A DNA stretch of 27,545 bases from positions 1 to 27,545 of the IMG/VR virus record IMGVR_UViG_3300021408_000050. One strand, 5' to 3'. The notes under the pieces are model-generated. The model ran no database searches. It saw only the letters and a list, made by a program, of their open reading frames with translations, and was not told where the DNA came from. The stretch is from a virus. Its lineage: Duplodnaviria > Caudoviricetes. Positions 3,922-25,139 of the stretch are shown piece by piece (positions within the stretch are counted from its first letter, which is position 1; each line of letters opens with the position of its first letter). The position numbers and the translations under genes were made by a program.

Positions 3922-3939
3922 GAAAGTGAGAAACACATC

Positions 3940-8382: not shown

Positions 8383-8422
8383 GAGGGGAGGGGCGGCCCA
8401 AGTGGTCGTCCCTTCTTTCGTT
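8383..8422 (+). terminator. Hairpin terminator/attenuator after capsid gene
   Basis: 16-bp stem GAGGGGAGGGGCGGCC / GGTCGTCCCTTCTTTC with G-U pairs on the + strand. Confidence 0.65.
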
Positions 8423-8436
8423 CGGGAGGAAAAGAA

Positions 8437-8922
8437 ATGACTGAACCCAAGAAGCGGACAGTGAAACGAACAGCATCGAAGGAAACTTCTGAGGACATGA
8501 TTGTTACTACGGATCCTCTGCCTGAAAAGGAAACCGCAGAGCAGTCTCAGTTTCCTTCTCTCCGTGGTCTCCAGAATCTCGAAGTTGAGAAGCGCGGGGC
8601 AGACAACGACGGATCAGAAGACGGACGCTGGAGGAAGACCTACGTTCTTCTCGGGGATCTGGAATCTCTGGAAGACGAAGAGAATGAAGTTCACAGGAAG
8701 AACAGGATTGACGTTCTTCAGCAGGCCATCATGAACGGTCTGCATCCGCAGGAGGAAGCAAGTTTTGACGGGGCAGAAATTCATGAGGATGGTGTGAGTG
8801 TGAATCTCCATTATTCTGTGAATGTCATTCCGTCGATTGTGGATGAGGATCCAGAATCCGCTGTGACTCCGGCTGACGTTCTGGAGAAGGAAGAGAACGA
8901 GCCCGCCTCTGCGTCTGCCTGA
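8437..8922 (+). CDS. Acidic hypothetical protein of the head module
   Basis: ATG at 8437 after GGGAGG; 161 aa. Confidence 0.75.
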   Translation: MTEPKKRTVKRTASKETSEDMIVTTDPLPEKETAEQSQFPSLRGLQNLEVEKRGADNDGSEDGRWRKTYVLLGDLESLEDEENEVHRKNRIDVLQQAIMNGLHPQEEASFDGAEIHEDGVSVNLHYSVNVIPSIVDEDPESAVTPADVLEKEENEPASASA

Positions 8923-8939
8923 CTGCTGTAGGGCCGCTC

Positions 8940-8998
8940 AGGGCCACAGGGTTCCCGAGGTACCTACGAGGTGTCTTAGGCGCTCTGTGGCCCTTTTG
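8940..8998 (+). terminator. Long hairpin terminator
   Basis: AGGGCCACAG...CTGTGGCCCT outer stem with an inner stem, followed by a T run. Confidence 0.6.
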
Positions 8999-9024
8999 TG
9001 TACTCAGAGAAAGAGGTAATAAAA

Positions 9025-10977
9025 ATGACTGCCACTGGATATACAAGTGGTGACCCCAACAAGGTAGATGTTTCCAACGAAACTTCTCCGGTCGGGTTCG
9101 GTATGGCAGCATCCGCAAGCTACAAGATTTCTGTAGGGGTCGGGACAGATATTCCTTCTGTCTATTCCCTGAACTCAACCGGTGGTGGAAATCTCAACTC
9201 TCCTCATTTCCGGGCGGACTCAGCCGCTGCCTCTTCTCTCCTCGTAACGTCGAGGGTCACCGGAGATTCTTCTTCCCGATTCGCTGCGACAATCAGCGGA
9301 GATCTTTCTTGGGGTGGAGGAAGTGGGTCGCGGGATGTAAATCTCAAGCGAGAAGCTGCGGACATTCTTCGGACCGATGACAGGTTCGTGATCGGTAGTG
9401 CATACGGGGCAGCTACTTACGCAGCTCTGCCGAAGGGAATCACAAACCGCAGTGAGACTGCCGGTCTTATTGTGGGAAGTTCATATTCTGGTGGAGATGA
9501 TGACGGGACAGGAACTGACTCCACAGGACGTATCAACCTGTACGCCTACCAGCGTGCGAACGTAGGAAGTTTCGGAGAGACCATCAGGAATTTTCTGATG
9601 CGGTCTGATGCAAAAGCCATGACAGTTTGGTACGGCCCAGAAGATGGGTTGAAGAAATCAAACTACAACGCAACAACTCGTGATCCGGAAAGTGGTTCCA
9701 CCTGGAAGCCGTGGACGTGGACAGGTTCACACTTTGAGGCGAACAATCATGCAAGTGTTCACGGTCACTGGGAAGTGGAAGTTCCAGATTCTACCGGTGC
9801 ACTTCAGGGACGCTTGGAAATTCCGTTCATCGATCAGTCCAAGTTGGGTGGACTCGGCGGGACGATTGATGACACCACCATCGGTGTGGACTGGACGAAC
9901 ATCCGGACCAACCTTGCAGACTTTTCTGTCCGTGCTCAGAACATCACGAGTGGAGATTTCACCGGGCAGAATACTGCACTAAGGGTCGGGGGAAATAACG
10001 CTGTCAACAAGGATATTGTTCTGGCGATTTCCTCGGACATGCAGACTGCTGGCCGACGGTGGATTATCCGAGGAAACATCGATACGGAAGCCGGAAGTAA
10101 TGCAGGAACAAACTTCCAGATTTCTCGTTGTGCGGATGATGGGTCAATTATTGGAACGCCATTCTTCATTCAGCGTTCTGATGGACAGATCACGAACGGT
10201 GCTGCGTCGGCAAAGGGTTCTCGTTTTGCTGCGGTGTGGGCTACGTCTGCAATCCATGGATTCTCTGCTCAGCCGTCCGCAACGATCGGTTCTGCTGCGG
10301 CATTCGATGCACAGATGTCCGCCACGACAGAACGTGTTTTCCAGTCGACTGTCACCGGAGATGCGAACCGTCGTCATGTAATTTACACAGATGGAAAGTA
10401 TGAGTGGGGAGATGGAACCGCAACGCGAGATGTAAATATTTACCGTTCTGCTGCTGGTGTTCTGAAGACAGATAACTCCTTCATTATTGGAGCGTCCCTG
10501 TCTGTCACGACTGCGATCAATGGTGGAAGTTCTTCAAGTGGAAACCTCACTCTGAATTCCACTACGCACGCCACGAAGGGAAAGATTTTTCTTGGTGCAA
10601 ACTCTGCATACGACGAAGTAAATTCTCGTCTTGGTGTAGGCACCACTTCCCCTTCCATGAACATTGATTCACAGAGGGCGGTGGCTGGTAACTCTGCATA
10701 CGGTGCTCGTGTAATCGGGGATGCCGGTGCGCGGTTCGTCATCAATGCTGATGGAGGAATGGTGTGGGGTTCTGGTGCCGGTTCTACAGACGTAAGCCTC
10801 TTCCGTTCTGCTGCGGACAAGTTGAAGACTGATGACATGTTCATCGCTGCTCTGGGAATCGGGGTAGGAAATTCTGCTGCTGCAACTACGCCGGGAACGG
10901 TAGCCCGAAAGATTCAGGTATTCGATGCGGCTGGTGCTTCTCTCGGCTTCATCCCGGTGTACGACGCAATTTCGTAA
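9025..10977 (+). CDS. Virion fibre/appendage protein with three internal repeats
   Basis: G/S/T/A-rich 650 aa; three repeats ending 'DV.L.R.AA..LKTDD'; GAGG RBS. Confidence 0.7.
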   Translation: MTATGYTSGDPNKVDVSNETSPVGFGMAASASYKISVGVGTDIPSVYSLNSTGGGNLNSPHFRADSAAASSLLVTSRVTGDSSSRFAATISGDLSWGGGSGSRDVNLKREAADILRTDDRFVIGSAYGAATYAALPKGITNRSETAGLIVGSSYSGGDDDGTGTDSTGRINLYAYQRANVGSFGETIRNFLMRSDAKAMTVWYGPEDGLKKSNYNATTRDPESGSTWKPWTWTGSHFEANNHASVHGHWEVEVPDSTGALQGRLEIPFIDQSKLGGLGGTIDDTTIGVDWTNIRTNLADFSVRAQNITSGDFTGQNTALRVGGNNAVNKDIVLAISSDMQTAGRRWIIRGNIDTEAGSNAGTNFQISRCADDGSIIGTPFFIQRSDGQITNGAASAKGSRFAAVWATSAIHGFSAQPSATIGSAAAFDAQMSATTERVFQSTVTGDANRRHVIYTDGKYEWGDGTATRDVNIYRSAAGVLKTDNSFIIGASLSVTTAINGGSSSSGNLTLNSTTHATKGKIFLGANSAYDEVNSRLGVGTTSPSMNIDSQRAVAGNSAYGARVIGDAGARFVINADGGMVWGSGAGSTDVSLFRSAADKLKTDDMFIAALGIGVGNSAAATTPGTVARKIQVFDAAGASLGFIPVYDAIS

Positions 10978-10988
10978 AGGGGAAAATC

Positions 10989-11357
10989 ATGGTTGCTGTA
11001 CGAACCACGATGCGACCTTTTGAGACCATCGAGGTAACAGAAACTGAGTTCACAGATCTGGAAATTCAAGGTCTGATCTACACAGACTGGAATGTTCTGT
11101 GGGTTAATTTCTACATGTACGTAGCCGGTCCACTGGCAACAGTTACCGGAGTACAAATCAGGATCCAAGATTCTGAAGATGTATATGTAATTTCCACAAC
11201 CAGTACAGGAGTTCTTAACGAGGACATCGGAACTTATTTTTACCGATGGCTCGAAGAAGATCAGCCTGGACCTGGTGATTACACAGTGACATGGACAGCG
11301 ACTGACGGACAGGGAAATCCTGTGACTGCCGTCGAGACTGTCACGATCGAAGAATAG
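10989..11357 (+). CDS. Putative virion decoration protein (N-terminal peptide plus Ig-like domain)
   Basis: C-terminal beta-rich domain 'G.Y...W...GDYTVTWTATDG'; N-terminus homologous to 13554..13742. Confidence 0.7.
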   Translation: MVAVRTTMRPFETIEVTETEFTDLEIQGLIYTDWNVLWVNFYMYVAGPLATVTGVQIRIQDSEDVYVISTTSTGVLNEDIGTYFYRWLEEDQPGPGDYTVTWTATDGQGNPVTAVETVTIEE

Positions 11358-11364
11358 GAGTGAA

Positions 11365-12129
11365 GTGGTGAGTACATTTCTTCAGGGAGACGACGGAACT
11401 TTTACCGCTCAGTTCTACGAGTACGCGGGAGGACCGGCAACAAATCTCACTGGCGTAACCGTAGAAATTACAAAGGTGGGAGAAGTTGTTCCTGCTGTTC
11501 CTGCCACAGCATCGGGAGTAACGAACCCGGCAACAGGTTTCTACACGTTCGTATGGGCCGTTCCGCTAGGGCAGGACACCGGAGACTACACAATCGTCTG
11601 GGAGGGCACAGACGGACAGTCAGAGATTATTCAGGCTAGTGAAGTCTTCACTGTAGGCGCTGCTGTTTCTGGAACGTGGGCGACAGTAGCTGATGTTCTG
11701 GAAATCACAGGCGAGACTGTCACCTCTGCAAAACTTCGTCAGGCACAATATGTCATTGACATGAAGTCTGGCCGTAGTTACGAAATTCACGACATGCTCG
11801 TTGCAAATAGTCGCCGAAGGGATCTGCATTATCTGAAGCTGGCAACGGCGTATCAGGCAGCGTGGATGAAATCTCAGCCTGATATGTTCGGGCGTATGAA
11901 TCTCACAAACGTGAATGCAGATTCTTCTTCTGCAACATTCGGTGTAGATGCCATGTCGCTTGGACCCCTGGCACGGGGAGCACTGAAACGGGTTTCTTGG
12001 CAGGGCACTCGTTCTTTGCGGGTGAAGAAAGATCCTGCATCTGTCATCCCGTACATGAGCGGCCAGAGGATTCCTCCTGCCGGTTCCCCCATCTATGACC
12101 AGCCCTATGACGGATGGAGCCAGATGTGA
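11365..12129 (+). CDS. Head-to-tail adaptor with N-terminal Ig-like domain
   Basis: C-terminal part begins 'WATVADVLEITG', with 'LKLATAYQAAWM' typical of actinophage adaptors; GGAG RBS. Confidence 0.75.
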   Translation: MVSTFLQGDDGTFTAQFYEYAGGPATNLTGVTVEITKVGEVVPAVPATASGVTNPATGFYTFVWAVPLGQDTGDYTIVWEGTDGQSEIIQASEVFTVGAAVSGTWATVADVLEITGETVTSAKLRQAQYVIDMKSGRSYEIHDMLVANSRRRDLHYLKLATAYQAAWMKSQPDMFGRMNLTNVNADSSSATFGVDAMSLGPLARGALKRVSWQGTRSLRVKKDPASVIPYMSGQRIPPAGSPIYDQPYDGWSQM

Positions 12130-12455
12130 GAGCCATCGCTAACACGACGATTTCTATTCTCGGCGGGACAGCAGAAGATGAGTTCGGAGAACAGACAGAT
12201 TCAGGAACCGTTCTATCTTCGGAAATTCCCGCTGCTGTGACCGAACAGACCAGGCAGATGTCTACTCAGGAAAACCCCACGCCACACGTGGTGAGGTTTA
12301 CGGTGTGCCGGGTAGGTTCAGACACGCAGGTAGAAGAAACAAATATCGTGCTTGACGAAGGTACAGGAAACAAGTACACCATCCAGGGAAAGTCTCAGAC
12401 CGGAGGATTCGGAATGAAGAATGATCTGAGGCTGGACCTCCGGCGCATCACGTGA
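12126..12455 (+). CDS. Head-to-tail stopper / head closure protein
   Basis: GTGA coupling; 109-aa beta-rich protein; 'DEFGE' early motif; synteny. Confidence 0.7.
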   Translation: MRAIANTTISILGGTAEDEFGEQTDSGTVLSSEIPAAVTEQTRQMSTQENPTPHVVRFTVCRVGSDTQVEETNIVLDEGTGNKYTIQGKSQTGGFGMKNDLRLDLRRIT

Positions 12456-12554
12456 CAACCGGGGAAACTCGGTGCACACTGATTCCTGACGGCCCCCTAA
12501 GCGGGAAAACTGCACGGGTTGTCAACCGACCACCATCCGAAAAGGAGGGCGGCC
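12453..12554 (+). ncRNA. Candidate multi-stem cis-regulatory RNA element
   Basis: TGACAACC/GGTTGTCA closing stem, GAAA tetraloop hairpin, GTGCA/TGCAC and TTCCTG/CGGGAA stems, SD-occluding hairpin. Confidence 0.4.
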
Positions 12555-12842
12555 ATGGCAGACTATGAATTCACCATGAGCAGCGGAGCCGACCAACATA
12601 TTAAACAAGCGACAGAAGAATTCCTGAACATGATCGGTGGAGAAATTCTTTCCGACATGCAGCGTGCTGTTCCGGTGGACAGCGGCGACCTGAAGGATTC
12701 TCTGATCGCAGAAGTTTCGAACCAGGAACTTCGAGTCGGTTCCAAGGATGTCGATTATTCTGTCGATGTTGAAATGGGAACTTCACGCTCTCCTGCGCAG
12801 CCCTACATGAGGCCATCACTTTTCCGCAGGAGGACACCGTGA
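12555..12842 (+). CDS. HK97 gp10-like neck protein
   Basis: 'PVDSGDLKDS', 'Y...VEMGTS...AQPYMRP' signature; AGGAGG RBS. Confidence 0.9.
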   Translation: MADYEFTMSSGADQHIKQATEEFLNMIGGEILSDMQRAVPVDSGDLKDSLIAEVSNQELRVGSKDVDYSVDVEMGTSRSPAQPYMRPSLFRRRTP

Positions 12843-13303
12843 CTACGACGCTGCGTCCCACCACAGAACTTGTTGCCGTCGCCTGGCTTCAGTCTCTTTT
12901 TTCTGATCCGATGGTGGCAACGACACTTCCTAAGCCTGGAGCTGATGGAAGTATTTCTTGGCAGTCCACGGGATTTGTGGTTCCTACTGTCGTGGGTGGA
13001 TCTCCGGATCTTTACATCCCGACGAGGAATCCTGTTATCGGCGTGGACACCTGGGCAGCGAAACTTAATTCCCAGAAAGTTCCGTGGGATCTGGCCAACA
13101 ACATTGCTGAAGAAATCTGGGCGAGCTTTAGCGTCAAGGAAAACTTCAACAGTGAACTCACCATCACAAAGGGAGCAGTCACCTATCCCAGCGTGAAGGT
13201 TCTTGAGGCGTGGTCGCACACAGAAATCCGAAGGATCTCCAATGATCCTGCGGGATATGCCCACTACAGTTTCGACATGGGTTTCTCCTGGGTGGAAATC
13301 TGA
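12839..13303 (+). CDS. Tail terminator protein
   Basis: Follows gp10-like gene, precedes major tail; 154 aa; GTGA coupling. Confidence 0.75.
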   Translation: MTTTLRPTTELVAVAWLQSLFSDPMVATTLPKPGADGSISWQSTGFVVPTVVGGSPDLYIPTRNPVIGVDTWAAKLNSQKVPWDLANNIAEEIWASFSVKENFNSELTITKGAVTYPSVKVLEAWSHTEIRRISNDPAGYAHYSFDMGFSWVEI

Positions 13304-13566
13304 TGCCCGAGAAGCGATGGGCCATGCGAGGAAATATCTCAGGGGAACTTCTTTCTCTCGGTGGAAAAATTATTGTGCACGATAGCCGAGAGGAACTTCT
13401 CTGGGGGATGGATCCTAGCGGAGTTACCATCATGGAATGTCCGGTAAGTATCCGGAATGAAGAAACCTTGGAACTGATTTTCCATCCGCAAGTGGTCAAC
13501 CAGCCGTGGGCTAAGAAAAGGCTTGCGGAACGTCTGAAGAAGGAGAACATCTCATGCGAAAGGTGA
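13303..13566 (+). CDS. Hypothetical protein
   Basis: TGATG coupling; 87 aa. Confidence 0.65.
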   Translation: MPEKRWAMRGNISGELLSLGGKIIVHDSREELLWGMDPSGVTIMECPVSIRNEETLELIFHPQVVNQPWAKKRLAERLKKENISCER

Positions 13567-13742
13567 AGACTACACTTCGCCCTGACGAGACGATCGATGT
13601 AGGAGAGGCAGAGTTTCTGGATCTGGATCGTCAGGGACTCATCTCCGAAGAGGTCTCCGATGGTGAAGAAGAGGCACCGGCCAAGGAGAGTGGAAAGAAC
13701 ATCTCCGCACCCTCCAAGGTTCAGGAAAAGAAGGAGGCGTAA
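13554..13742 (+). CDS. Small protein with conserved TT.RP.E.I.V...EF.DL..QGLI peptide
   Basis: AAGGAG RBS; homologous to the N-terminus of 10989..11357. Confidence 0.75.
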   Translation: MRKVKTTLRPDETIDVGEAEFLDLDRQGLISEEVSDGEEEAPAKESGKNISAPSKVQEKKEA

Positions 13743-13745
13743 GTC

Positions 13746-14306
13746 ATGGCTGTAACTACGACCAACTTTATTCAGGGCCCGGCAACTATTTACACCGGAG
13801 CGTTCGGTGTTGCTGAGCCGGTGGATACTGCGGTTGCCACTCCTCCGAGCACTGGATGGACGGACAGTGGCGGTACGCAGGATGGTCTGAAGATGACATT
13901 CGACCAGAAGTATTCTGCGATGGAATGTGACCAGATTGTGGACAACCCTGGTTCTCGTCTGGTGGAGCGAACCACTACCGCAGAAACCAACATGGCTGAA
14001 GCGACTCTCGAAAATCTGAAGGTTGCGCTTAACGGTGGAACCATCACTACGGGAACAGGCTTCAAGAAGTATGAGCCTGCTTACGCCACGTCGGCAACTC
14101 AGCCCACGTACTCCGCTCTCTGCATTGACGGATACGCACCGGGACTTTCCTTCGCCCGACGTGTCATTGTCCGCAAGGTTCTCAACACGGACAAGGTGGA
14201 ATACGCATACACGAAGGACAAGCAATCGGTGTGGAGTGTGAAGTTCGAATCACACTTTGTTTCTACCTCGATCGCTCCATTCATCGTGGTTGACGCAACC
14301 GCCTGA
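13746..14306 (+). CDS. Major tail (tube) protein
   Basis: 'GPATIYTG', 'GGTQDG', 'EATLENL' motifs; AGGAGG RBS; before chaperone and tape measure. Confidence 0.9.
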   Translation: MAVTTTNFIQGPATIYTGAFGVAEPVDTAVATPPSTGWTDSGGTQDGLKMTFDQKYSAMECDQIVDNPGSRLVERTTTAETNMAEATLENLKVALNGGTITTGTGFKKYEPAYATSATQPTYSALCIDGYAPGLSFARRVIVRKVLNTDKVEYAYTKDKQSVWSVKFESHFVSTSIAPFIVVDATA

Positions 14307-14329
14307 TCCCACAAGAAAAAAAAAGAAGC

Positions 14330-14380
14330 GGGCGGGTGGATCTGTTCGCACATTCCATGTAGCGGTCCACCCGTTCTCTT
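14330..14380 (+). terminator. Hairpin after major tail gene
   Basis: GGGCGGGTGGATC / GGTCCACCCGTTC stem; A run upstream, TCTT downstream. Confidence 0.55.
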
Positions 14381-14418
14381 CGGTCAACAAAAACTTCTAG
14401 AAAAGTTAAGAGCGCATC

Positions 14419-14766
14419 ATGACGAACATCGAAGACATCAAGCCGGTAGAACTCAAGACTGACACGACTCCTGACGCAAAGAAGCGGGTAACTATTTTCA
14501 CGATTGCTGATGCGGAGGGGAAGAAGACTGAGTACACCATTCCTGCTAAGCCCCGTCCGAACATCGCACTGAAGTACATGTGGACTCTGAAAACCACAGG
14601 AAACGGTGACACTGCCGCTGCTCAACTTCTGGAAGACATGTTGGGAGAAGAGGGCTACATGGCTCTCATGGCTTGGGACGATCTGGAAGTTGAACAGTTC
14701 AAGAATATTCTGGACATCTGCAAGGATGTTTCTATGGGTGGGATGGAAGAGGCAATGGGAAACTGA
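14419..14766 (+). CDS. Tail assembly chaperone (G-like)
   Basis: Between major tail and tape measure; ends in slippery G GGA AAC. Confidence 0.88.
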   Translation: MTNIEDIKPVELKTDTTPDAKKRVTIFTIADAEGKKTEYTIPAKPRPNIALKYMWTLKTTGNGDTAAAQLLEDMLGEEGYMALMAWDDLEVEQFKNILDICKDVSMGGMEEAMGN

Positions 14767-15146
14767 TTGCGCGGGCCGAGCAAATTGTATGGGTCCTCGA
14801 TCACCTCGCAGATCTGGAAGCTGATTTCCTGGTCTTCTACCGGATCGAGGACCCATTTTCTTTGGACGGTCCGCGCTTCTTCCGACTGGCTTGGAGAGCA
14901 TCGGCGTATCAGGGTTCGATGCGTGCCGTGGCTGAGGCTCAGGAGAACAGACGACAGGGATATGGACAGCGAGAGCCAGGCAGTTACAACAGGCCCTCAG
15001 AAGCCCGTACAGAGCCTCAGCAAGAAGTTACAAAACCAGCTATAGAAAAAACTCAACAGCAGTGGTTGCGAGAAAACTACAATCCTAACGCCACAGATTT
15101 CAACGGAGAAACCTTCGACTGGAATCCACTGATGCAACAGATCTGA
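14419..15146 (+). CDS. Tail assembly chaperone, -1 frameshift product (GT-like)
   Basis: GGGAAAC at 14757-14763; -1 frame is open (KLIARAEQIVWVLDHLADLEADF...FFRLAWR...) to the stop at 15146. Confidence 0.85.
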
Positions 15147-15167
15147 AAATTTAAGGAGGTGTGATTC

Positions 15168-17474
15168 ATGGCTGAAGGTGGATCGTTCCAGATCGCTTCA
15201 GGATTTGTGCGAGTGACTGCACAGCCTGATGCAGATGGTGCTGAGAATGCCATGCAAGCTATGGGCGGCCGGATGGCTGCTGTGGCTGGTGGTCTCGGGT
15301 TGGGTGCGCTGGTTACCAAGGGGCTCGTAGATAATCTCAATGCAGGTGCTGCCACTGCAAAACTTCAAGCGCAGATGGGTCTTACCAAGGGCGTCGCTGC
15401 CGACATGGGAAAAGCTTCTGGAGAAATTTACCGAGATGGATTCGGTGGATCAATCTCAGAAGTTAATGATTCCATCAAGGCTGTAGGAACCAACATTGGT
15501 GACCTCAGTTCTATGTCCAAGACCGAAATCAAGAGCATGTCTTCGGCTGCTCTAGGTCTTTCAGAAGTCTTCGGAGTGGATGTTAATGATTCCACTAAGG
15601 CTGCTGGACAGATGATGAAAAATGGACTTGCCAAGGACGGCAAGGAAGCCATGGACATCATCACCAAGGGAATGCAGATGGGTCTTGACTCGTCTGGAGA
15701 TTTCTTGGACACCATGACGGAGTACAGCCCTCAGTTCACCAAGCTTGGAATTGATGGTCCACAAGCACTAGGACTTCTTTCTCAGGGTCTAAAGGCAGGT
15801 GCGAAAGACACAGACGTTATTGCAGACGCCTTTAAGGAATTTTCGCTGCGGGCAATCGACGGTTCCAAACAAACTTCTGATGCCTACAAGGGCATTGGAC
15901 TGGACGCAGATAAAACTTCTGCTGCCATCGCAAAGGGTGGACCTTCCGCACAGAAGGCAACAGCTCAGGTAATTGAAGGTCTGAAGAAAGTTAAGGATCC
16001 TCAAGAACAGAACAGGATCGGTGTTGCTCTCTTCGGAACGCAGTGGGAAGACACTCTTAGGACAATTATTCCGAAGATGGATATGTCTGCCGCCGCTACA
16101 ACCAAGGTAAAAGATTCCACCAAGACCATGAATGACACCATGGCAGCTACACCCCAAGCAAAAATTGAGGGTGTGAAGCGGGCTATGGAAGGCTGGCTGA
16201 TGTCAGCTACACAACTTCCTGGTCCGTTGGGAACTATCGGCGCAGGAATGATTGCGATGGGTCCTGGCGCGATTACTGCCGCTGCTGGTATTTCTGTCAT
16301 CGCAGCAAATATGGGTTTGACAGTTGCATCAATCGGCACTGCTATCAAGGCTGCTGCTGCGTGGGCTCTCCAGACGGTTAAGTCTGCTGCTACCGCTACG
16401 GCTTCTGTCGTCGCCACAGTGGCCCGTCAGGTGGCTGCATGGGTTGTTCTTGGTGTGCAATCGATGCTTGCTGCTGCGCGGGTTGCTGCGGCATGGCTTA
16501 TTTCTCTCGGACCTATTGCAATCGTGATTGCTGCTGTCGTAGGACTTGTAGCTCTCATTATTGCAAACTGGGACACCATTAAAAGTGCAATCGGAAAGGC
16601 TTGGGACTGGATCAAGGAAAAGACTGTTGCTATCTGGAATGGACTCAAGGAGTTCATGAAGAAAGCATTCGAGTTCTTGAAGAATATTTTCCTGAACTTC
16701 ACAGGTCCCGGCCTCATTATCAAGCACTGGGAAACTATCAAGAAAGCAACCGGTGCAGCCTGGAAGTGGGTTAAGGATTCTGTATCCAGCGCATTTAATT
16801 TCTTGAAGGATATTTTCTTCAAGTTCACTGGTCCTGGAATTGTAATCAAGCACTGGGCTCAGATCAAGAACTTCATCACCAACTCCATTAATTCAGCTAA
16901 AAAAGCTGTTACAGATGCTGTTGGAAAAATTGTTTCTAGCGTCACAGGAATTAAAGACAGGGTGATGAGTGCCCTGAGTGGTGCTGGAAAATGGCTTGTT
17001 GAGTCCGGGAAGAAAATCATCCAGGGCCTCATCGACGGTATCAAGAACATGGCAGGAAATGTTAAGGACGCAATCGGCGGTGTGCTCAGCGATGCACGAG
17101 ACTTGCTGCCGTTCTCGCCTGCCAAGGAAGGTCCGTTCTCTGGCAAGGGATGGACTACTTATTCCGGTGCCTCCATTGTTGACGGCATGATCGAGGGTGT
17201 GGATTCTCGCATTCCTAGCCTTGCTGCAAAAATGGGAAGCATGGTTAAGACAGCTTCTGTTCCGGTTCATACCATCAACAGCCCGACAGTTCCTGTCCGT
17301 GGAAATCTTGCAGTTCCCAGCATGGCAGGAACACAGCAGCGGGTACAGAAAATCCAGAACTTGAATGTTCACATCAAGGGAATTCTTGACCCGAAGAATC
17401 CGCAGGCGACTCGTGAGCTGATCGCAGAACTACACGAGCGGCTGGACGACTACGCCAAAGAATATGCTAGGTGA
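15168..17474 (+). CDS. Tape measure protein
   Basis: 768 aa, Ala/Gly-rich helical; 'DAFKEF' and 'ALFGTQWED' core, hydrophobic stretch, Trp-periodic repeats, 'PFSPAKEGPFSG'; AAGGAGG RBS. Confidence 0.95.
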   Translation: MAEGGSFQIASGFVRVTAQPDADGAENAMQAMGGRMAAVAGGLGLGALVTKGLVDNLNAGAATAKLQAQMGLTKGVAADMGKASGEIYRDGFGGSISEVNDSIKAVGTNIGDLSSMSKTEIKSMSSAALGLSEVFGVDVNDSTKAAGQMMKNGLAKDGKEAMDIITKGMQMGLDSSGDFLDTMTEYSPQFTKLGIDGPQALGLLSQGLKAGAKDTDVIADAFKEFSLRAIDGSKQTSDAYKGIGLDADKTSAAIAKGGPSAQKATAQVIEGLKKVKDPQEQNRIGVALFGTQWEDTLRTIIPKMDMSAAATTKVKDSTKTMNDTMAATPQAKIEGVKRAMEGWLMSATQLPGPLGTIGAGMIAMGPGAITAAAGISVIAANMGLTVASIGTAIKAAAAWALQTVKSAATATASVVATVARQVAAWVVLGVQSMLAAARVAAAWLISLGPIAIVIAAVVGLVALIIANWDTIKSAIGKAWDWIKEKTVAIWNGLKEFMKKAFEFLKNIFLNFTGPGLIIKHWETIKKATGAAWKWVKDSVSSAFNFLKDIFFKFTGPGIVIKHWAQIKNFITNSINSAKKAVTDAVGKIVSSVTGIKDRVMSALSGAGKWLVESGKKIIQGLIDGIKNMAGNVKDAIGGVLSDARDLLPFSPAKEGPFSGKGWTTYSGASIVDGMIEGVDSRIPSLAAKMGSMVKTASVPVHTINSPTVPVRGNLAVPSMAGTQQRVQKIQNLNVHIKGILDPKNPQATRELIAELHERLDDYAKEYAR

Positions 17475-17481
17475 GTAAATA

Positions 17482-18705
17482 ATGACTGATGCATCATTCG
17501 GTACCGTGACAATTGGCCGTCTGGTACTCCGAGAAGATTTCATTGCATCCACTGGAAATGAAGCAGGAGGAAAAAGGACACTGTCACTATCGGGGCAGGA
17601 AAGTTCTCCGCCTCTTACAGCGGCTGTTCTGAAGCAGCGTCGGGAGGATATTAACTCTCTTGGTGCTTGCCTCGTACCTGTGTACTTCACCAACAAGTCA
17701 GACCTGAACGGGTATTACTGGGTCGATAGTTCTTCGGCAGACATCACCAACTGGACTGGAGAAGTTATCCGGTTCGACTGGAAGATTACTCTGGAATTTG
17801 TTGGTCCAGAAAATGCAGTAGACATCGAGTCTCGTCTTACCGGAATTTCACGGCTGAACGATTTCGGTTTCTCAGGCAACCGGTGGCACGCCCCTAGCAT
17901 CGGACACTATGCCTACTCCACAGGCTCTACGTTGCCGACAGGGGTTCTTACCCGCACTGGGGAAGAGGGAGCCATGACGGTCTACACAACGGTTCCGGCG
18001 GATGTAGATCCTCGCTGGGGATGTGACGTTGTGGATTACATGACTGGTTCCTCGCGGGTAAAAGAAAGTTCTCTCGTGCGTACTGGAGTGAACATCACAC
18101 TTGGTGCTGCAACTTGGGAACTAAATAATGCTCTCGTGAAAGTAACTCCCCTCACATCCAGTGGAGTGTTCCGGGTTTCTTCTTACCGGGCTGGATCGTG
18201 GCGAGACAAGGACTGGAACTTTTCTGTAGGAGGAACTACCGGGGCTGAGAGTGTCGGAACATTCGATGCCTGCACCGTCCTCCGCAACGATCCAGAAATG
18301 GTGACTCTGCGCCTGGTAAAAAACAGGACTCCTTCTGGACGAGTAACAGTGGATCTGTCACTTCGTAGGGGTAGCAGATTCGTAGAAGTTTATGCACAGA
18401 GTGACATCTCAACAACTATGTCTGTGTGGCTTCAGACTCTGGAAACCACAACTGACAACAGTGTCATCGGGTACATCACTGCTACGGCTGATGACGCGGG
18501 CGGGAATAAGTTCTCTGCTGGCTCTGCACGGACGTTCACAGTGCACGCCAATGGAGGAGTAACGAAGACTGCCACAGTAGTTCTGGACGCGTTCCTAGGG
18601 GCTCAAGTAGCCGGAAGTTCAGCAGTGTCCGGAGACCAATCAGTAGATCTGAGGAATCAATATCTTCGGACCATGGCTGAGGAAACGAATGGAGTACGAC
18701 GATGA
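17482..18705 (+). CDS. Minor tail protein (distal tail-like)
   Basis: First gene after tape measure; 407 aa, beta-rich. Confidence 0.75.
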   Translation: MTDASFGTVTIGRLVLREDFIASTGNEAGGKRTLSLSGQESSPPLTAAVLKQRREDINSLGACLVPVYFTNKSDLNGYYWVDSSSADITNWTGEVIRFDWKITLEFVGPENAVDIESRLTGISRLNDFGFSGNRWHAPSIGHYAYSTGSTLPTGVLTRTGEEGAMTVYTTVPADVDPRWGCDVVDYMTGSSRVKESSLVRTGVNITLGAATWELNNALVKVTPLTSSGVFRVSSYRAGSWRDKDWNFSVGGTTGAESVGTFDACTVLRNDPEMVTLRLVKNRTPSGRVTVDLSLRRGSRFVEVYAQSDISTTMSVWLQTLETTTDNSVIGYITATADDAGGNKFSAGSARTFTVHANGGVTKTATVVLDAFLGAQVAGSSAVSGDQSVDLRNQYLRTMAEETNGVRR

Positions 18706-21700
18706 GTGTCGTAGAAGTCAAGCAATCACTCGGTTCATGGAATCTAAAGCTGAGTGATAAAACTCCTCGTCGTCTTCTCGATGCACTCACATACTTCGGG
18801 CACGTAGTTTTCATTCCTGGCAAGGTAAATCCTGTCCAGTATGGGGACAACGTTCTTGCACAGGCTCGATACGTAGGTGTGTACCGAGGACGCTCCTCAA
18901 AGAATCAGTTCGAACTGAAGGGATGCGGACTTTCTTTCTGGCTAGGAGATGAAGATAACAAGGGTGACATTCTCCAGACTCCGCACACTTTTCTCAGTGA
19001 GACTTTCGCGAACACCATTCGTGATTTGCTGCCCCCTCATGGAGCTATCACGGAGGGGACACTTCATTCTGTCGCGGGAACGTATAACGGACAGCATCAG
19101 TGGCAGACTTCTCGTGAAGCCATCACGTATGTAACTGACACTTTCAGCGCAGAATGGAAAGTCAACAACACAGGAACTCTTGACGCGGGAGCAATCGCAG
19201 ATCTTTTTGTGACAACTCCTGTAGCTCTTATTTCCCGAAAGATGCCGGGCAAGGATCCTCACATCCTCGGACTGCCCGGACAGATGGGAAGTGAAAGGGA
19301 TGTGGAGGACTACAGCACGCGAGTAGTTCTTTTGGCAGAAGGAGACGGAGCAAGTATTTACACGGGCTCTGCGGATGCTCCTTCAGTTCCCTTCAAAGAT
19401 CTGCATGGAAACACTATGTGGATGACTCGCATGGTTTCTGAATCCGGAACGGTGGCTGACAATGCTGATGCTCGTGCAGCGATGCAGCTTGGCAGGTTCT
19501 CCGGCACAAGAAATTCTGTAACTCTTTCTACCGATGCTTACGACGTGAAGGGAGATTTTGTTGTAGGAGATTATGTCTGGGTTTTTGATCCTGACAATGA
19601 GTTCGTAGATACTTCGAACCAAATTTCCTACCGGGGAGAACTTCTTTCACCACTAAAGATTCGTGTGGTGGAAATGACATGGCCTATCCAGGCTGGCTAT
19701 ACCGTTGCATTCCGAGACACGGATGGAAACTGGTTCGATCTCACGGACTACTATGTTCCGGAAGAAGGATCTACCAGTATTACCGTGGGAGAATTTTCTC
19801 GCTCGCTTACGTCTGCGGGATCTGAACCTACAACTCCCCGTGTAAATTACGACACGTCTACCCCTGCTGCTCCGACACTTAACACCCCATTCTCTACGTC
19901 CAGTTACATCAATGGCCGAGGAGAAAATAAAGCGCGGGTAGTGGTGTCCTGGAGCCAGCCACTGAACGTGGACGGCAGCACCATCACGGACGGAGACCAT
20001 TACGAAATCCAGTTCAAGACTTCTTTCGGCGCTACGTGGGGAACCAGGTATCAAAGTTTTGACAGTACAACGCTGACGGTTGAAGAACTTTCTCCGGCAA
20101 CTTCGTATGACTTCAAGGTTCGTTGTGTAGATCAGAACGCCAACATCGGTGCGTTCTCCGCAACGTCTACGATTGTTGCGAGTGTAGATGTAACTGCTCC
20201 GTCAACTCCTGCGGCTGCAACGGTGGCAGGAAACCCTATCCAGATTCAGGTTCTTCATGAGCTAGGAAAAGCTAGCGGAGGAACTTTCAATCTGGAAAAT
20301 GACCTGGACCATCTCGACGTTTTTGTGGGAATTTCGGCAGGGTTCACGCCTGGGGCAGGGAATTTCGTAGGTTCGATCTCTGCTACTTCATCGAATCTCG
20401 ATACAGGTTCTGCGGTCATCGCAAACTTTCCGATCCCAGATGACACCACAAGATATGTAAAAGTTATTGCTGTAGACCGCAGTGGCAACCAGTCTGCTGC
20501 TTCATCTTCTGCGTCTGTTTCTGCGCTGCTCATCGACACCATCAACATTGCAGACGCAGCAATCACCAACGCAAAAATTGATAGTCTTTCTGCCAGTAAA
20601 ATCACGGCAGGAACTATCACTGGTGAAGAAATTATTATTGCTGGTGGAACTTCTGGAATCCTTCGCAGTGATAATTTTGATGACACAGGTACGGGTGCTG
20701 GATGGAGTATTAATGGTGATGGTGAAGCTGTAATAACCAGTCTCCGAACTGGCCCTACAGGTTCTGCCCGTGTAGCCATCGGAGACAGTACGGGTGCGCC
20801 TTCTGGAATTCCCATTCAGTCGATGGTCTGGCTCTACACCGGAGACGGGTCGGAGAACACCGGAGGATACGTATACGGGGCTGTGGAGCCTGCTTCCGGT
20901 ACGACTCGGCGCGCTGGTCTTACGCTGCGTTCTCCGCGCTTCACATCGTCTCTGAACGGTTCTTCGTTCGTTCAGATCCAGTCGCAACCGGCAGATGCTT
21001 CAAGCAGTCCCACAATCACGATCCAGACAAGTGATGGCACAGCAGGAACTGTAAACTTCAATACTGCTCGTGTAAAAATGCTGGACTCTTACTTGGACCT
21101 GGACGACAACGGGCGGTTGTATTTCTCCGAGACAAATGGAGATTACATCAGTCATACCGGCAACGGGTTCGAGATGCGGGACAACAGTGCTCTGACAGGA
21201 TCAAGTCTTTCTGTCGGCAAGGTATATCTGGAAGACAGGCGTATCCATTTCCAGGGTGTTGCTAACTCTCTAATCAATGTTGATTACATTGACTTCGATG
21301 AGACGGATAATAGGTTTGACTTTGTAGCTGACTCGGACCAGAACTTTTCCAAGGTTCATGCCGGGGCTGCAATTGTCGGATCGTTCGGGAACGCAGACTC
21401 TGCATACTTCGGGCATGACCAGAACTTCACGTCTGGTGCGTGGGCTCTGCGACAGACAGACTCCAACGGAAAGACAAACCTGAATGCTCCGAGTGGTGGA
21501 ATCGTCGCCATCTCTGTTCAGGATGATGATCTGGTGACATTCGAAGATGGTGGATCCACTACCATCATGACGATGAATAATCCTCTTCCTACGGGAACAG
21601 GAACTCCGGTTGTCAGTAATGCCTCACAACTTTACCGGGATACTTCTTCCAGGAGATTCAAGGAAAACATTCAGCCGATAGAATATACAGGGGATGTTCC

Positions 21701-21926
21701 TCCGGTATTTTTCCTGTCCCCTCGTTCCTTCGATTGGAAGGCGGGAGTAGGAACTTACGTCCCAAGGATGGATGGCCTGATTGCTGAGGAAGTCCAAGAG
21801 TTTATTTCTTCGGCAGTAGTGACAAGCGAAGACGGAACAGTGGAAGGTTTGAACAACAATGTTCTTGTAGGAAACATCATCGCAGGATTGAAATATCTGA
21901 AGGATCGTCTCGATAGCATGCAGTGA
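18702..21926 (+). CDS. Minor tail protein: hub + FN3 domains + fibre with C-terminal S74-type chaperone
   Basis: FN3 pattern (VSW...YEIQ...L.PATSYDFKVR); 'I.DAAITNAKI..LSASKITAGTI' stalk; 'SSRRFKENI...GLIAEEV' autocleaving chaperone motif. Confidence 0.85.
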   Translation: MSVVEVKQSLGSWNLKLSDKTPRRLLDALTYFGHVVFIPGKVNPVQYGDNVLAQARYVGVYRGRSSKNQFELKGCGLSFWLGDEDNKGDILQTPHTFLSETFANTIRDLLPPHGAITEGTLHSVAGTYNGQHQWQTSREAITYVTDTFSAEWKVNNTGTLDAGAIADLFVTTPVALISRKMPGKDPHILGLPGQMGSERDVEDYSTRVVLLAEGDGASIYTGSADAPSVPFKDLHGNTMWMTRMVSESGTVADNADARAAMQLGRFSGTRNSVTLSTDAYDVKGDFVVGDYVWVFDPDNEFVDTSNQISYRGELLSPLKIRVVEMTWPIQAGYTVAFRDTDGNWFDLTDYYVPEEGSTSITVGEFSRSLTSAGSEPTTPRVNYDTSTPAAPTLNTPFSTSSYINGRGENKARVVVSWSQPLNVDGSTITDGDHYEIQFKTSFGATWGTRYQSFDSTTLTVEELSPATSYDFKVRCVDQNANIGAFSATSTIVASVDVTAPSTPAAATVAGNPIQIQVLHELGKASGGTFNLENDLDHLDVFVGISAGFTPGAGNFVGSISATSSNLDTGSAVIANFPIPDDTTRYVKVIAVDRSGNQSAASSSASVSALLIDTINIADAAITNAKIDSLSASKITAGTITGEEIIIAGGTSGILRSDNFDDTGTGAGWSINGDGEAVITSLRTGPTGSARVAIGDSTGAPSGIPIQSMVWLYTGDGSENTGGYVYGAVEPASGTTRRAGLTLRSPRFTSSLNGSSFVQIQSQPADASSSPTITIQTSDGTAGTVNFNTARVKMLDSYLDLDDNGRLYFSETNGDYISHTGNGFEMRDNSALTGSSLSVGKVYLEDRRIHFQGVANSLINVDYIDFDETDNRFDFVADSDQNFSKVHAGAAIVGSFGNADSAYFGHDQNFTSGAWALRQTDSNGKTNLNAPSGGIVAISVQDDDLVTFEDGGSTTIMTMNNPLPTGTGTPVVSNASQLYRDTSSRRFKENIQPIEYTGDVPPVFFLSPRSFDWKAGVGTYVPRMDGLIAEEVQEFISSAVVTSEDGTVEGLNNNVLVGNIIAGLKYLKDRLDSMQ

Positions 21927-21944
21927 GAAAAAAAATGTAGAAAG

Positions 21945-21998
21945 AAAAAAAAGAGGCCCCGTCATCCCGGAGAAAATTTCCAGGAGCGGGGCTCTCTT
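21945..21998. terminator. Bidirectional terminator between convergent operons
   Basis: AAGAGGCCCCG...CGGGGCTCTCTT hairpin preceded by A runs; lies between convergent genes. Confidence 0.75.
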
Positions 21999-22008
21999 CG
22001 TGTGCAAG

Positions 22009-22416
22009 CTACAGAGTGCTGCATGCCTTCTGCATGGCAGCTACCCGCTTGCTCCAGTCAGCCACTACTTCACCGTCTCGCAGATCTTCTGAACCACGAG
22101 CCAGGTTCATAGCTGCGTTGTAGATCTTTTTATTCTTGGCGAACATTGCTCCAGGATTCTTTTCAGAACCTGAGAGAAGTTCCGTAGTGATCTCAGTGGA
22201 CTTCAGTTCCTTCTCAGACTTTCCCGAGAAGAACTTACAGGACCACTTTTCTGCACCTGGAATTATTGTCCTCTGCTGAACGCTGGGCTTGCTGGAAACC
22301 TTGGGAGCTTCTGGCTTTTCTTCTGACCCAGAACTTCCACAACCAGAAATTACAGTGAGGGCTATGGTGGCAGCTAACGCCACTATGAATTTCTTATCCA
22401 TGCTCTTGTTCATCAT
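22009..22416 (-). CDS. Lipoprotein
   Basis: KK + hydrophobic core + ISG-C lipobox, then S/P/K-rich linker; two further Cys. Confidence 0.8.
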   Translation of the reverse strand: MMNKSMDKKFIVALAATIALTVISGCGSSGSEEKPEAPKVSSKPSVQQRTIIPGAEKWSCKFFSGKSEKELKSTEITTELLSGSEKNPGAMFAKNKKIYNAAMNLARGSEDLRDGEVVADWSKRVAAMQKACSTL

Positions 22417-22769
22417 ACGTGCTTTCCCTTTGCATCATGCTTGTGCGGCTTGCCGTCGTGGTCAGAAAACTTGGGCTTGTCTTCCTGGTTGTTGTCCGGA
22501 GTTTCCACACCAGGACCATGCGGGGTGATGGCATCCGCATAAGTGGAAGATTCATCTTCTGCATCAGTCTTTACCTGGAACTCCTGAAGCTGAGAACGAA
22601 GCCCGCCGTTCTCTTCCACCAGACCAACAATCTCTTCCTGCGCCTGCTCCAGTGCAGCGTTCAGGATGGCATTCTGAGTCTCTACCTGTCCTACTCGTGC
22701 GGAGATCTCATTGACCTTTGCTTCGAGATGCTTAGCAACTCGCATCGGGTCTACAGACATTTCTACCAT
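22413..22769 (-). CDS. Coiled-coil hypothetical protein
   Basis: Heptad pattern over about residues 10-65; ATGA coupling to the lipoprotein gene. Confidence 0.75.
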   Translation of the reverse strand: MVEMSVDPMRVAKHLEAKVNEISARVGQVETQNAILNAALEQAQEEIVGLVEENGGLRSQLQEFQVKTDAEDESSTYADAITPHGPGVETPDNNQEDKPKFSDHDGKPHKHDAKGKHV

Positions 22770-22838
22770 GGTGACTTCACTTTCTCTAGAAATAAAACTT
22801 GCTACTGAGACAGCGCCAGATAAGTCTTGAAGTTTTCC

Positions 22839-23522
22839 TTATCCGGTACATCCTGGAGTATGTTTTCCATTGAATCTGCCGCAGGTTCCACAGGGGGCAG
22901 ACTTCACTTCTTCAGGAGCTTCCGGAATTTCTTCCTCTGTCTCAGCTTCTACAAGGGAAGAATCGAAATCTTCTGTGGGAGAAACTTCCATGTCTTCCGA
23001 AGAAGAGTCCTCATCCTCCCACGAGTCGGGCTCAACAATCTCCTCAGCCTGCTCAGTGGCCTCCTCCTGGGCTTCCTGCGGTTCCTCTTCGTGGTTCTGC
23101 ACCAGGGTCAGTACAGCCCCGTCAGAAACGTTCTCAGGAGTTTCTGCGACTACGTCAGTAACGGGAGAAGACTTCTTACTCTTGACGATCCGATACTTCT
23201 TCTTGGGAGGCATGTCAGGAGTCTCACTCTCTTCGGATTTCCAGAACTGGAAAACGATGATGGTCTTCCACCGGTTGTTCTTACCGCGACGAGTCTTGAG
23301 CTTCAATCCAGTCTCCGCACCCTTGGCACGAAGGATGGCAATGAAGGAAGCAGGAGCACAAGTAAAATCTGTGCCTTCCTTAACTTCCCATGCTTCAAGA
23401 TTTGTCCATCGCTTCCATGGATACTTCGAGTTCGGATGTTTGATGTTCTTTCCAGCTTCCCGGAAGTTACGAACCCTCCTGGCCACTGTCTTCCTCCTTC
23501 CTTCCAAAGATGTTTTCCGCAT
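22839..23522 (-). CDS. Hypothetical protein: basic N-domain, acidic linker, C-terminal CxxC-H-C
   Basis: 227 aa; ends CGTCGRFNGKHTPGC. Confidence 0.75.
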   Translation of the reverse strand: MRKTSLEGRRKTVARRVRNFREAGKNIKHPNSKYPWKRWTNLEAWEVKEGTDFTCAPASFIAILRAKGAETGLKLKTRRGKNNRWKTIIVFQFWKSEESETPDMPPKKKYRIVKSKKSSPVTDVVAETPENVSDGAVLTLVQNHEEEPQEAQEEATEQAEEIVEPDSWEDEDSSSEDMEVSPTEDFDSSLVEAETEEEIPEAPEEVKSAPCGTCGRFNGKHTPGCTG

Positions 23523-23985
23523 CGGTGATCAGAAGATTTTCCACTGGAGGAAGAAGCCATACCTCTAGCCTCAAAGACTCTGTGAGCTGAGGGTTATCAC
23601 TCAAGAACTTTTCTAGGAGGATCTTGTTTTCTGAGTAGAAAATCAGTTCGTTCTGTGAAAGGAACTGACGCTTCTTCTGAGAGAACCAGCCCCACCTGTC
23701 GAGATCGGAATACTCTGGCACTTCACGAGACTCAAGATTTTCCCCAGACAGATCCTTGCTGCCGACTAGGGGAGAACCACCATGAGTGACCTTGTACCAG
23801 CCTTGTCCGTCCTCGTCATCCAGAAGAGAAACGTACTTACCATACTTGACGAGAACGACCTTCCTACGCTGCCCCACCAGACCCCTTGCCCAGTACTGCG
23901 GGAACTCAAGAGTGTCTGTCACAGTACAGATGACGCGCATAGCGAAGCAGTTTTCACCGTTCCACTGCGTACGAACTTTGTTCAT
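23467..23985 (-). CDS. Hypothetical protein
   Basis: 172 aa; GGAG RBS; protein-like core 'LDDEDGQGWYKVTHGGSP'. Confidence 0.7.
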   Translation of the reverse strand: MNKVRTQWNGENCFAMRVICTVTDTLEFPQYWARGLVGQRRKVVLVKYGKYVSLLDDEDGQGWYKVTHGGSPLVGSKDLSGENLESREVPEYSDLDRWGWFSQKKRQFLSQNELIFYSENKILLEKFLSDNPQLTESLRLEVWLLPPVENLLITDAENIFGRKEEDSGQEGS

Positions 23986-24206
23986 GTTTTCTCTCCAGTT
24001 TCTTCGGTTAGCCAGCTTGCAGGTTGTAGAGAAAGCTTCTTGGTCTCTGGATTTCTTTCCCAGTAATAAGGCTTTCTGAAAAACCAGATGACTTCTAGTT
24101 TCTGTGGATGAAGTTGTTTTTCGTATGCGTTATCGATGATGTTAATTCCATCATCAAGATTGTTAGGACCTGAAGTAATCGTAATCTCCCCGAGGTACAG
24201 CCACAA
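23982..24206 (-). CDS. Hypothetical protein (start uncertain)
   Basis: Fills the gap; its stop is coupled by ATGA to the next gene. Confidence 0.45.
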   Translation of the reverse strand: MWLYLGEITITSGPNNLDDGINIIDNAYEKQLHPQKLEVIWFFRKPYYWERNPETKKLSLQPASWLTEETGEKT

Positions 24207-24378
24207 TGATGTGATGTGGATTTACTAGCACAGGATGTTTGAAGGTACTGTCATCTGCTACTAGCAGCAAGTCTTGGTCAGAAGAATTTGAGATGATCTT
24301 TCCTTCAACCATGCGACCTGAAGTCAGAAAGAAAATATATTCTTCCCCGACAGAAAAGTTCTTCTGAATAGTAGCCAT
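24163..24378 (-). CDS. Small Sm/Hfq-like fold protein (putative)
   Basis: TGATG-coupled start with GGGGAG RBS; 'YIFFLTSGRMVEGKI...LLLV...LVNPHHIIVAVP' parallels Sm1/Sm2 motifs. Confidence 0.55.
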   Translation of the reverse strand: MATIQKNFSVGEEYIFFLTSGRMVEGKIISNSSDQDLLLVADDSTFKHPVLVNPHHIIVAVPRGDYDYFRS

Positions 24379-24701
24379 CAGTTCTCCCCGCCATAATCGT
24401 GAGTGATAGTTTCTCCAAGCTTTCCGATCCACTTTTCTGCTGAAATAGCGAACTCTACTTCTTGCTTGAAGTATCCGGCCATCTCACCCATCACTTTTGC
24501 GGCCGAAGAAATCTGCTCCAGAACTTCTACTGGCAGGTCTCGCAGTAGGTCCATCGTCTTGGCAGACTCCCCACGGTATGCCCATTCAAAGGCACGCACA
24601 GTGCGGGAGACAGAATCAGAATCCATGATTACTTCATGGTTCTCTCGAAACTTCTGCTGAACTTCTGCCCACGAAACTTCTTCGGTGCCAGGTTCAATCA
24701 T
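24378..24701 (-). CDS. Hypothetical helical protein
   Basis: 107 aa; ATGA coupling; AAGGA RBS. Confidence 0.75.
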   Translation of the reverse strand: MIEPGTEEVSWAEVQQKFRENHEVIMDSDSVSRTVRAFEWAYRGESAKTMDLLRDLPVEVLEQISSAAKVMGEMAGYFKQEVEFAISAEKWIGKLGETITHDYGGEN

Positions 24702-24898
24702 CGTCGGTTGTCCTTACTCCAGTAGAAAGCGGCGAAGGCAGTAACACAGAAGACTAGCAGGAAGACCGGATGAAAACCTGAATCCTGCGGTACGAAGAAG
24801 ATAGCTACACCCGAACAGGTGCAGAGTCCCACGGTGACCAGCGGAAAGGTTGCTATGGCCCTTCTCTTCCACCGGACGATTCTGCGGTGAAGCTCCAT
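24698..24898 (-). CDS. Small two-TM membrane protein
   Basis: Basic N-terminus and two hydrophobic segments; TGATG coupling. Confidence 0.7.
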   Translation of the reverse strand: MELHRRIVRWKRRAIATFPLVTVGLCTCSGVAIFFVPQDSGFHPVFLLVFCVTAFAAFYWSKDNRR

Positions 24899-25083
24899 CA
24901 GAAGAACCTCTGTACCTCATACGTGACGAGCCAGAAGATTGCTCCGGAAATCCAGCCTGCTGCCCAGTTGTTGAATTTCTTCGAGCAGTAGGTTCGTGCT
25001 CGTGAGTGTGAAATTTTCACCTTCAAAAACATCTTGCGAGGAGAAGAAAACTTCTTAACTTCTGCTGCTTCCTGTACGGCCAT
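24898..25083 (-). CDS. Small protein with C-terminal TM segment
   Basis: ATG at 25083 after AAGGGA; hydrophobic WAAGWISGAIFWLV. Confidence 0.6.
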   Translation of the reverse strand: MAVQEAAEVKKFSSPRKMFLKVKISHSRARTYCSKKFNNWAAGWISGAIFWLVTYEVQRFF

Positions 25084-25139
25084 TATTTCTTGTCCCTTCC
25101 TAGCTACCTTCGTTCTGTTCCTTCTTGTCTCCAAGGTAG

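Follow-up and report, generated by a model that had tools for sequence, protein, structure and literature searches.

The closest cellular parallel to the locus described here is the bldA/TTA regulon of Streptomyces, exemplified by adpA, actII-ORF4, redZ and, from the tail-like particle cluster, SCO4263/slpR, whose known functional targets are regulators with a conserved TTA leucine codon and a dependence on bldA that has been tested. According to the account in PMC10732093, TTA codons in the hosts are biased towards the 5'-ends of genes and lie mostly in horizontally acquired genes. Among Streptomyces phages, the UUA codon of the phiHau3 / StrepC.1 terminase bypass has been proposed as a sensor of host stage and, as described in the same source, it precedes a non-coding gap of 7–10 nt in an essential gene and is accompanied by flanking structure (PMC10732093). 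Phage CW39 carries TTA in 9 of its 208 ORFs, two encoding HNH and seven hypothetical proteins, and its authors already speculate on a bldA-linked infection (PMC13350457).

The locus analysed here lies in a stretch of 27,545 nucleotides, referred to below as the window, which constitutes the whole of the linear IMG/VR record IMGVR_UViG_3300021408_000050 (50% GC), and its subject is a predicted lipoprotein gene with one in-frame TTA codon. In having TTA-free virion genes and few residual TTA codons, confined to small accessory or HNH genes, this uncultured phage from soil resembles Jay2Jay (BE), BillNye (BK), CW39 and Yara (BN), which have GC contents of about 48–53%, or 64% for Yara. It differs from them in lineage, its virion genes being 45–54% identical to those of the BN, Zuko and KimJongPhill phages and of actinomycete prophages, in having no tRNA genes in the window and in carrying its residual TTA in a lipoprotein signal peptide. 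The likeness to the bldA regulon consists of an in-frame TTA near the 5'-end of a non-essential gene, whereas the window gene is a structural accessory gene, known from sequence alone, and the codon is absent from the one homologue that could be read as DNA. A bypass element of the phiHau3 type was ruled out because the ORF stays in frame throughout, continuing without a gap into the lipobox and a conserved domain, and the RNA fold at the UUA is unremarkable. The superinfection-exclusion lipoproteins Ltp of TP-J34, Llp of T5 and Cor are likewise small and phage-encoded and lie outside the virion module, but the window protein shows no sequence or profile match to them, its low-confidence model gave no fold match and the host phylum differs.

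Gene organisation of the window

The genome completeness of the record was estimated at about 38% (CheckV), so that statements about an only TTA codon are valid for this fragment. Within it no tRNA gene, and thus no tRNA-Leu(UAA), was found, nor was anything recognised as a lysis, integrase or replication gene. The features considered below are as follows.

1513..21926, + strand: siphovirus packaging, head and tail block of 22 genes (PHROG hits, codon count)
21940..21999, - strand: predicted intrinsic terminator, a hairpin with a U-run (terminator scan, folding)
22009..25134, - strand: leftward block of nine small accessory genes (codon counts, probable starts)
22009..22416, - strand: accessory gene for a predicted 135-aa lipoprotein, last in the leftward operon (ORF; homologues P0002 and P0003; AF2)
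22339..22416, - strand: predicted lipoprotein signal peptide with lipobox I23-S24-G25-C26 (sequence; lipobox consensus from established knowledge)
22375..22377, - strand: the one TTA read in frame (Leu14), within the h-region of the signal peptide and with G as the next base (counts; identical in contigs X1, X2 and X3)
22413..22769, - strand: upstream coiled-coil gene whose stop overlaps the lipoprotein start (ATGA) (ORF list)

PHROG matches in the rightward block included terminase, portal, scaffold, capsid, tail tube, tape measure and minor tail proteins. Four further rightward genes lie to the right of the leftward block.

TTA codons in the window

The first-pass annotation had reported, from manual frame checking, that the lipoprotein gene carries the sole in-frame TTA codon, and a full count bears this out: with probable starts, TTA accounts for 1 of 550 leucine codons over 38 genes, the remainder being TTG (50), CTT (161), CTC (117), CTA (41) and CTG (180). 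The other eight genes of the leftward block, read from their probable starts, have none. When the longest possible starts are used the count becomes 4 of 577 for the same 38 genes, and the three extra codons (terL codon 4 when read from GTG2401, codon 13 of 24163–24432 and codon 16 of 27112–27372) all lie 5' of ATG codons with a better Shine-Dalgarno-like site or with an overlap to the stop of the gene before. The terL gene would carry TTA at codon 4 only if GTG2401 were its start; ATG2416 is the probable one, since it is preceded by an SD-like GGTGG site and GTG2401 by none, and the N-terminal lengths of homologues fit both. In this region (2401–2418, + strand) the in-frame TTA lies two codons before the probable ATG and overlaps the TAG stop of the upstream gene. 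Six low-credibility ORFs in the gaps between genes also contain TTA.

The depletion is codon-specific, because these 38 genes contain 162 TTA triplets that are not in frame. In the virion block it is complete (0 of 435 leucine codons) and production of virions would therefore not need bldA, in agreement with the earlier proposal that the lytic core is bldA-independent.

The codon itself is secure. The lipoprotein gene, with TTA at codon 14, was also retained by an automatic caller for which TTA counted neither for nor against a gene, and the plausible starts M1, M2 and M6 all lie 5' of the codon. Sequencing error was ruled out as its source since the contigs of the sequencing runs X1, X2 (possibly the source sample) and X3 (labelled as a second study) are identical at the codon; X3 and X4 are near-identical to the window and carry no evolutionary information. 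No RNA run was listed as containing the sequence, which bears neither way on expression. A role for TTA as a stop codon was also ruled out for the window, all 38 genes ending in TAA, TAG or TGA and none in TTA.

The lipoprotein gene and its homologues

The signal peptide consists of a basic n-region (MMNKSMDKK), a hydrophobic h-region of 13 residues (FIVALAATIALTV) and the sequence ISG-C26, with a lipobox that fits [LVI][ASTVI][GAS]C, as expected for a substrate of Lgt and Lsp by sequence criteria. Codon 14 stands in the context ATA GTG GCG TTA GCT. In NCBIfam the N-terminus weakly matched models of lipoproteins without reaching the cut-offs. A low-complexity linker rich in Ser, Pro and Lys follows, and then a small helical domain in the AF2 model (pLDDT 64); the product is thus predicted to be a surface protein lipidated at Cys26.

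The ATGA overlap suggests translational coupling of the lipoprotein gene to the upstream coiled-coil gene, for which no Pfam or NCBIfam match above cut-off was found. Directly 3' of the lipoprotein gene, between it and the convergent tail gene, lies the predicted terminator, whose hairpin (−35.5 kcal/mol, z −5.5) was equalled by none of 200 shuffles. By comparison, the RNA fold around the UUA is no better than chance (z 0.20) and was matched by 32% of synonymous randomisations and by 49% of leucine-centred windows, so that an apparent location of the UUA in a hairpin loop, lying within chance expectation, was dropped.

A search of 1.84 billion representatives produced two relatives. P0002, from Streptomyces griseoaurantiacus, is labelled a lipoprotein, shows 33% identity (E 8e-10) and has the lipobox LTA-C, while P0003 (28% identity, E 7e-4) has a hydrophobic N-terminus without the lipobox Cys. 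All three proteins have in common W58, C60, a TEL-SG-PGAMF core, RDG and C132, and these shared core residues indicate that the gene is real and under constraint at the protein level. C60 and C132 may form a disulfide bond. Judged by sequence comparison, the protein belongs to a small uncharacterised family with three known members.

Other searches were negative or marginal. A single-sequence word search with the window protein gave the self-match alone, a profile search found no relatives beyond P0002 and P0003, tblastn of the window protein against phages gave no match below E 0.6, and P0002 used as query found none in phages, plasmids or IMG/VR. The A2 profile yielded one marginal N-terminal match among 401 genomes from the genus to which G001 (Streptomyces) belongs, and P0002 yielded four marginal matches, in frames of 385–405 aa, among 401 genomes of the family of G002; none was counted as a homologue. 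Scanning metagenomes recovered the contig of the window itself (L204) and a fortuitous match in a purine-synthesis gene (L205). For the lipoprotein, no Pfam family was found at E<=0.1, NCBIfam gave the sub-cut-off signal-peptide match alone, PADLOC gave none and no PDB sequence scored below E 0.18. With the low-confidence AF2 model (pLDDT 64), a BFVD fold search gave no match at E<=0.001 and the best fold-search hits (Z 6.1) were generic helical bundles. ESM Atlas neighbours were actinobacterial hypothetical or lipoprotein clusters (0.90–0.91, TM <=0.49).

The P0003 gene belongs to a provirus of this lineage with 67% GC (L084/L005, G003), where it sits with other small accessory genes that follow the tail and holin genes. 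Conservation of the TTA codon in homologues, which had been put forward as a check, did not hold: the P0003 gene has no TTA among 15 leucine codons, all of which are CTG or CTC, and the called genes of its provirus lack TTA as well, although this comparison draws on a single distant homologue read as DNA, 28% identical, of 67% GC and without a lipobox.

The single TTA as a tolerated leftover

Cultured Streptomyces phages are cleared of TTA to a similar degree but not entirely. TTA genes per annotated CDS number 4/201 in Jay2Jay (1–120 kb of 133), 1/178 in BillNye (20–120 kb of 127) and 2/105 in Yara, where CDS cut by the ends of the stretches are excluded. All of these genes are hypothetical or HNH, of small accessory type, and four of their eight TTA codons fall in the first 11 codons. 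At this rate 0.7 TTA would be expected in the window, the probability of at least one being 0.52, and one TTA gene in 38 is thus to be expected given that cultured phages retain 1–4 per 105–201 CDS. Jay2Jay has 43 tRNA and tmRNA genes in 70–120 kb, including Leu(tag), Leu(gag) and Leu(caa), and it also has tRNA-Ile(tat). No tRNA-Leu(UAA) was found in the examined stretches of Jay2Jay (L209, L213, L214) or BillNye (L210, L215); both are rich in tRNA genes and carry other leucine tRNAs.

We consider it probable, at roughly 0.65, that TTA has been purged from this phage on a likely Streptomyces host and that the lone codon in an accessory gene is a tolerated leftover rather than a selected switch. 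In such a scheme bldA tRNA would be scarce in vegetative hyphae and selection would remove UUA from the genes needed there, acting strongly on virion genes and weakly on a gene that is dispensable and poorly adapted in its codons. Stalling at codon 14 would waste little and, with the terminator next and no gene behind, should have no polar cost. In S. coelicolor a TTA codon can exert polarity on the genes that follow it (PMC2000904), and for this reason one may cost least at the end of an operon. Expression in vegetative hyphae is probably reduced by the codon, and a de facto bldA dependence of the predicted lipoprotein, perhaps leaky, is plausible; the likely outcome would be a smaller amount of the protein in vegetative cells that serves no regulatory purpose. 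The overall pattern is already known, that of another low-GC Streptomyces-type phage cleared of TTA and, as it stands, the codon matters little.

Some observations weigh against this reading. The purge elsewhere is strong, and retention of this one codon could reflect selection. A single TTA placed at random would fall in the lipoprotein gene with a probability of 8/550 (1.5%), rising to 7% among non-virion leucine codons and to 12.5% among those within the first 25 codons of non-virion genes, although whichever gene had received the codon would invite a story. The TTA also stands with two ATA codons within eight codons of the signal peptide, which also fits selected slowing.

Possible selection for the TTA codon

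Selection for slow codons in the signal peptide, where TTA and the two ATA codons (11 and 18) would aid Sec export or cap the protein level and bldA dependence would be a side effect, seems to us rather unlikely. The clustering of three rare codons within codons 11–18 speaks for it, as does the bias of Sec signal-peptide regions towards non-optimal codons, which helps export in E. coli (PMC5875014). Against this, TTA and ATA are both absent from five genes for signal-peptide proteins or lipoproteins in Jay2Jay and BillNye, in a streptomycete the UUA would probably cause a stall rather than a mild pause, and the gene has another ATA at codon 51, beyond the signal peptide. Overall ATA accounts for 3 of 7 isoleucine codons in the gene versus 8 of 426 in the other genes (Fisher p 4e-4, a post hoc comparison among 38 genes), and codon adaptation of the gene, with TTA excluded, is the eighth lowest of 38. 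ATA is not read by bldA, and this excess, unrelated to bldA, indicates that the gene is rich in rare codons in general.

The first-pass annotation had favoured an adaptive bldA gate, which would restrict synthesis of the lipoprotein to differentiating hyphae and leave the lytic core ungated; the protein might then serve in exclusion or in masking a receptor. If true, the surface protein would appear once the host turns bldA on while virion production ignores the stage, and the gene would be a straightforward, testable example of a single surface protein that a phage times to the development of its host. The purge in all other genes is strong and a Streptomyces host is likely. The position near the 5'-end is like that of host bldA targets, including SCO4263/slpR (as described in PMC8505568), and a phage precedent for UUA sensing exists in the phiHau3 terminase (in the account of PMC10732093).

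We nevertheless regard the gate as unlikely, and give a similarly small chance to its variant wording, in which one UUA is deliberately kept in the signal peptide of a new small surface lipoprotein family. One TTA is the baseline residue calculated above, and the excess of ATA in the same gene argues in the same direction. The codon is absent from the P0003 gene and from 16 other phage lipoprotein-like genes, namely 11 lipobox genes called in 160 related viral loci and the five of Jay2Jay and BillNye. UUA followed by a purine, here TTA-G, may be a leaky context that favours bldA-independent reading. Single UUA codons in hyg, aad and ccaR are decoded without bldA (PMC10732093), and when 21 TTA genes of S. 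coelicolor were mutated no clear phenotype resulted, according to work cited in PMC2000904. A selected developmental gate therefore finds no support here.

A role in superinfection exclusion, raised earlier, fared no better, being a guess from protein class alone; searches of Pfam, NCBIfam, PADLOC and PDB sequences, and fold searches with the low-confidence model, gave no match to exclusion proteins. Exclusion would presumably be most useful in vegetative mycelium and, since a bldA gate would be shut there, gated exclusion would run against its purpose.

Host of the phage

A streptomycete host, proposed earlier from the codon pattern, is likely. The nearest matches of TerL and MCP are Streptomyces phages, at 45–54% identity, followed by Microbacterium phages. 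All 16 organism-named Dit homologues among the 120 matches listed come from Streptomyces, as do the phages behind 80 of 82 tail-protein matches, and P0002 from S. griseoaurantiacus is the sole organism-named homologue of the lipoprotein.

The codon purge matches this assignment. In a GC-matched control, using one 50-kb stretch per phage, ORFs of at least 100 aa and codons beyond 25, TTA was absent from 487 leucine codons of the window, 939 of Streptomyces phage Jay2Jay and 842 of Streptomyces phage BillNye, whereas Mycobacterium phage Patience (21/943), Gordonia phage GordTnk2 (10/1052) and Arthrobacter phage CapnMurica (24/1030) use it at 1–2.3%. The pooled non-Streptomyces rate gives a probability of 5e-4 for at most one TTA in 550 leucine codons.

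Another actinomycete host (e.g. Streptosporangium, Nonomuraea or Saccharothrix), in which TTA would be generally disfavoured without control of the bldA type, is by this comparison quite improbable, although the GordTnk2 rate alone gives P(<=1) = 0.033 and Microbacterium phages also share TerL and MCP. Such genera account for 17 of the 38 genome loci with a Dit gene, the others being from Streptomyces (20) and Kitasatospora (1), with one stray hit of 24 residues omitted, and it is this distribution, together with the TTA-rich S. prunicolor relative described below, that tempers the assignment to Streptomyces. Of the Streptomyces Dit loci 19 of 20 have no TTA in called genes, whereas the 18 from other actinomycetes (Kitasatospora included) have 23 TTA among 10,098 leucine codons, even at about 70% GC.

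Among related loci below 60% GC, all 20 have TTA in core genes (217/3723, or 182/3245 when de-duplicated) versus 0/435 in the window, so the purge in the window is not a default of the lineage. These counts come from a self-trained caller and cover called genes only, the caller having missed terL and a minor head gene in the window, and the p-values are descriptive since the related loci overlap and share kinship. Relatives by TerL or Dit with 50–58% GC (L051, L052, L053, L057, L061, L063–L065, L069, L070, L073 and L157) use TTA at 3–12% of leucine codons in core genes. Pooled over the low-GC loci, TTA makes up 72/541 leucine codons in the first 50 codons versus 110/2704 beyond, and the non-core rate (95/1984) is similar overall to that of core genes.

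One of the relatives is an element of about 34 kb and 55% GC in S. prunicolor NBRC 13075 (L098 / G406:C172:178364-212824, NZ_BARF01000031.1; also L055 and L146), of the same lineage and flanked by chromosome of about 70% GC, with a probable serine recombinase at one end, recognised by eye from its N-terminal sequence. TTA occurs in its terS, terL, portal, capsid, tail tube, tape measure (15), Dit, tail and non-virion genes, amounting to about 10% of leucine codons in core genes, and no tRNA was found in the scanned loci. Residence in Streptomyces therefore does not force the purge. Either the element arrived recently from another host or its whole lytic module needs bldA, and it constitutes a better test case for bldA dependence than the lipoprotein. 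With this known exception, near-zero TTA at about 50% GC suggests itself as a useful host marker for uncultured actinophages.

Finally, that the TTA is a recent knock-down silencing a costly gene, an incipient pseudogene, would suit its early position and the low codon adaptation (eighth lowest of 38) but is very improbable for an intact ORF with a lipobox, conserved core residues, a coupled start and a terminator.

Other features of the window

Within ORF 22839–23522 the window differs at 23270–23271 from the contigs of X1, X2 and X4 (AC versus CA), possibly because the record was misassembled there. Divergent from the leftward operon is a small gene (25218–25409, + strand) that appears by eye to be ribbon-helix-helix-like, followed by a terminator-like hairpin of 20 pairs (25421–25467, + strand) and, downstream of it, by two DNA-binding- or Rep-like ORFs (25815–27193, + strand); small genes resembling these flank the P0003 gene in L084. 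A fibre-like gene of 650 aa (8998–10977, + strand) lies between the capsid and head-tail adaptor genes, while its partial homologues in relatives sit after the tail-tip gene; the tail-tip protein of the window ends in a C-terminal Peptidase_S74-like chaperone domain. The tail assembly chaperone pair (14720–14870, + strand) resembles the usual −1 frameshift arrangement, with GGGAAAC immediately 5' of the first stop and the second frame open.
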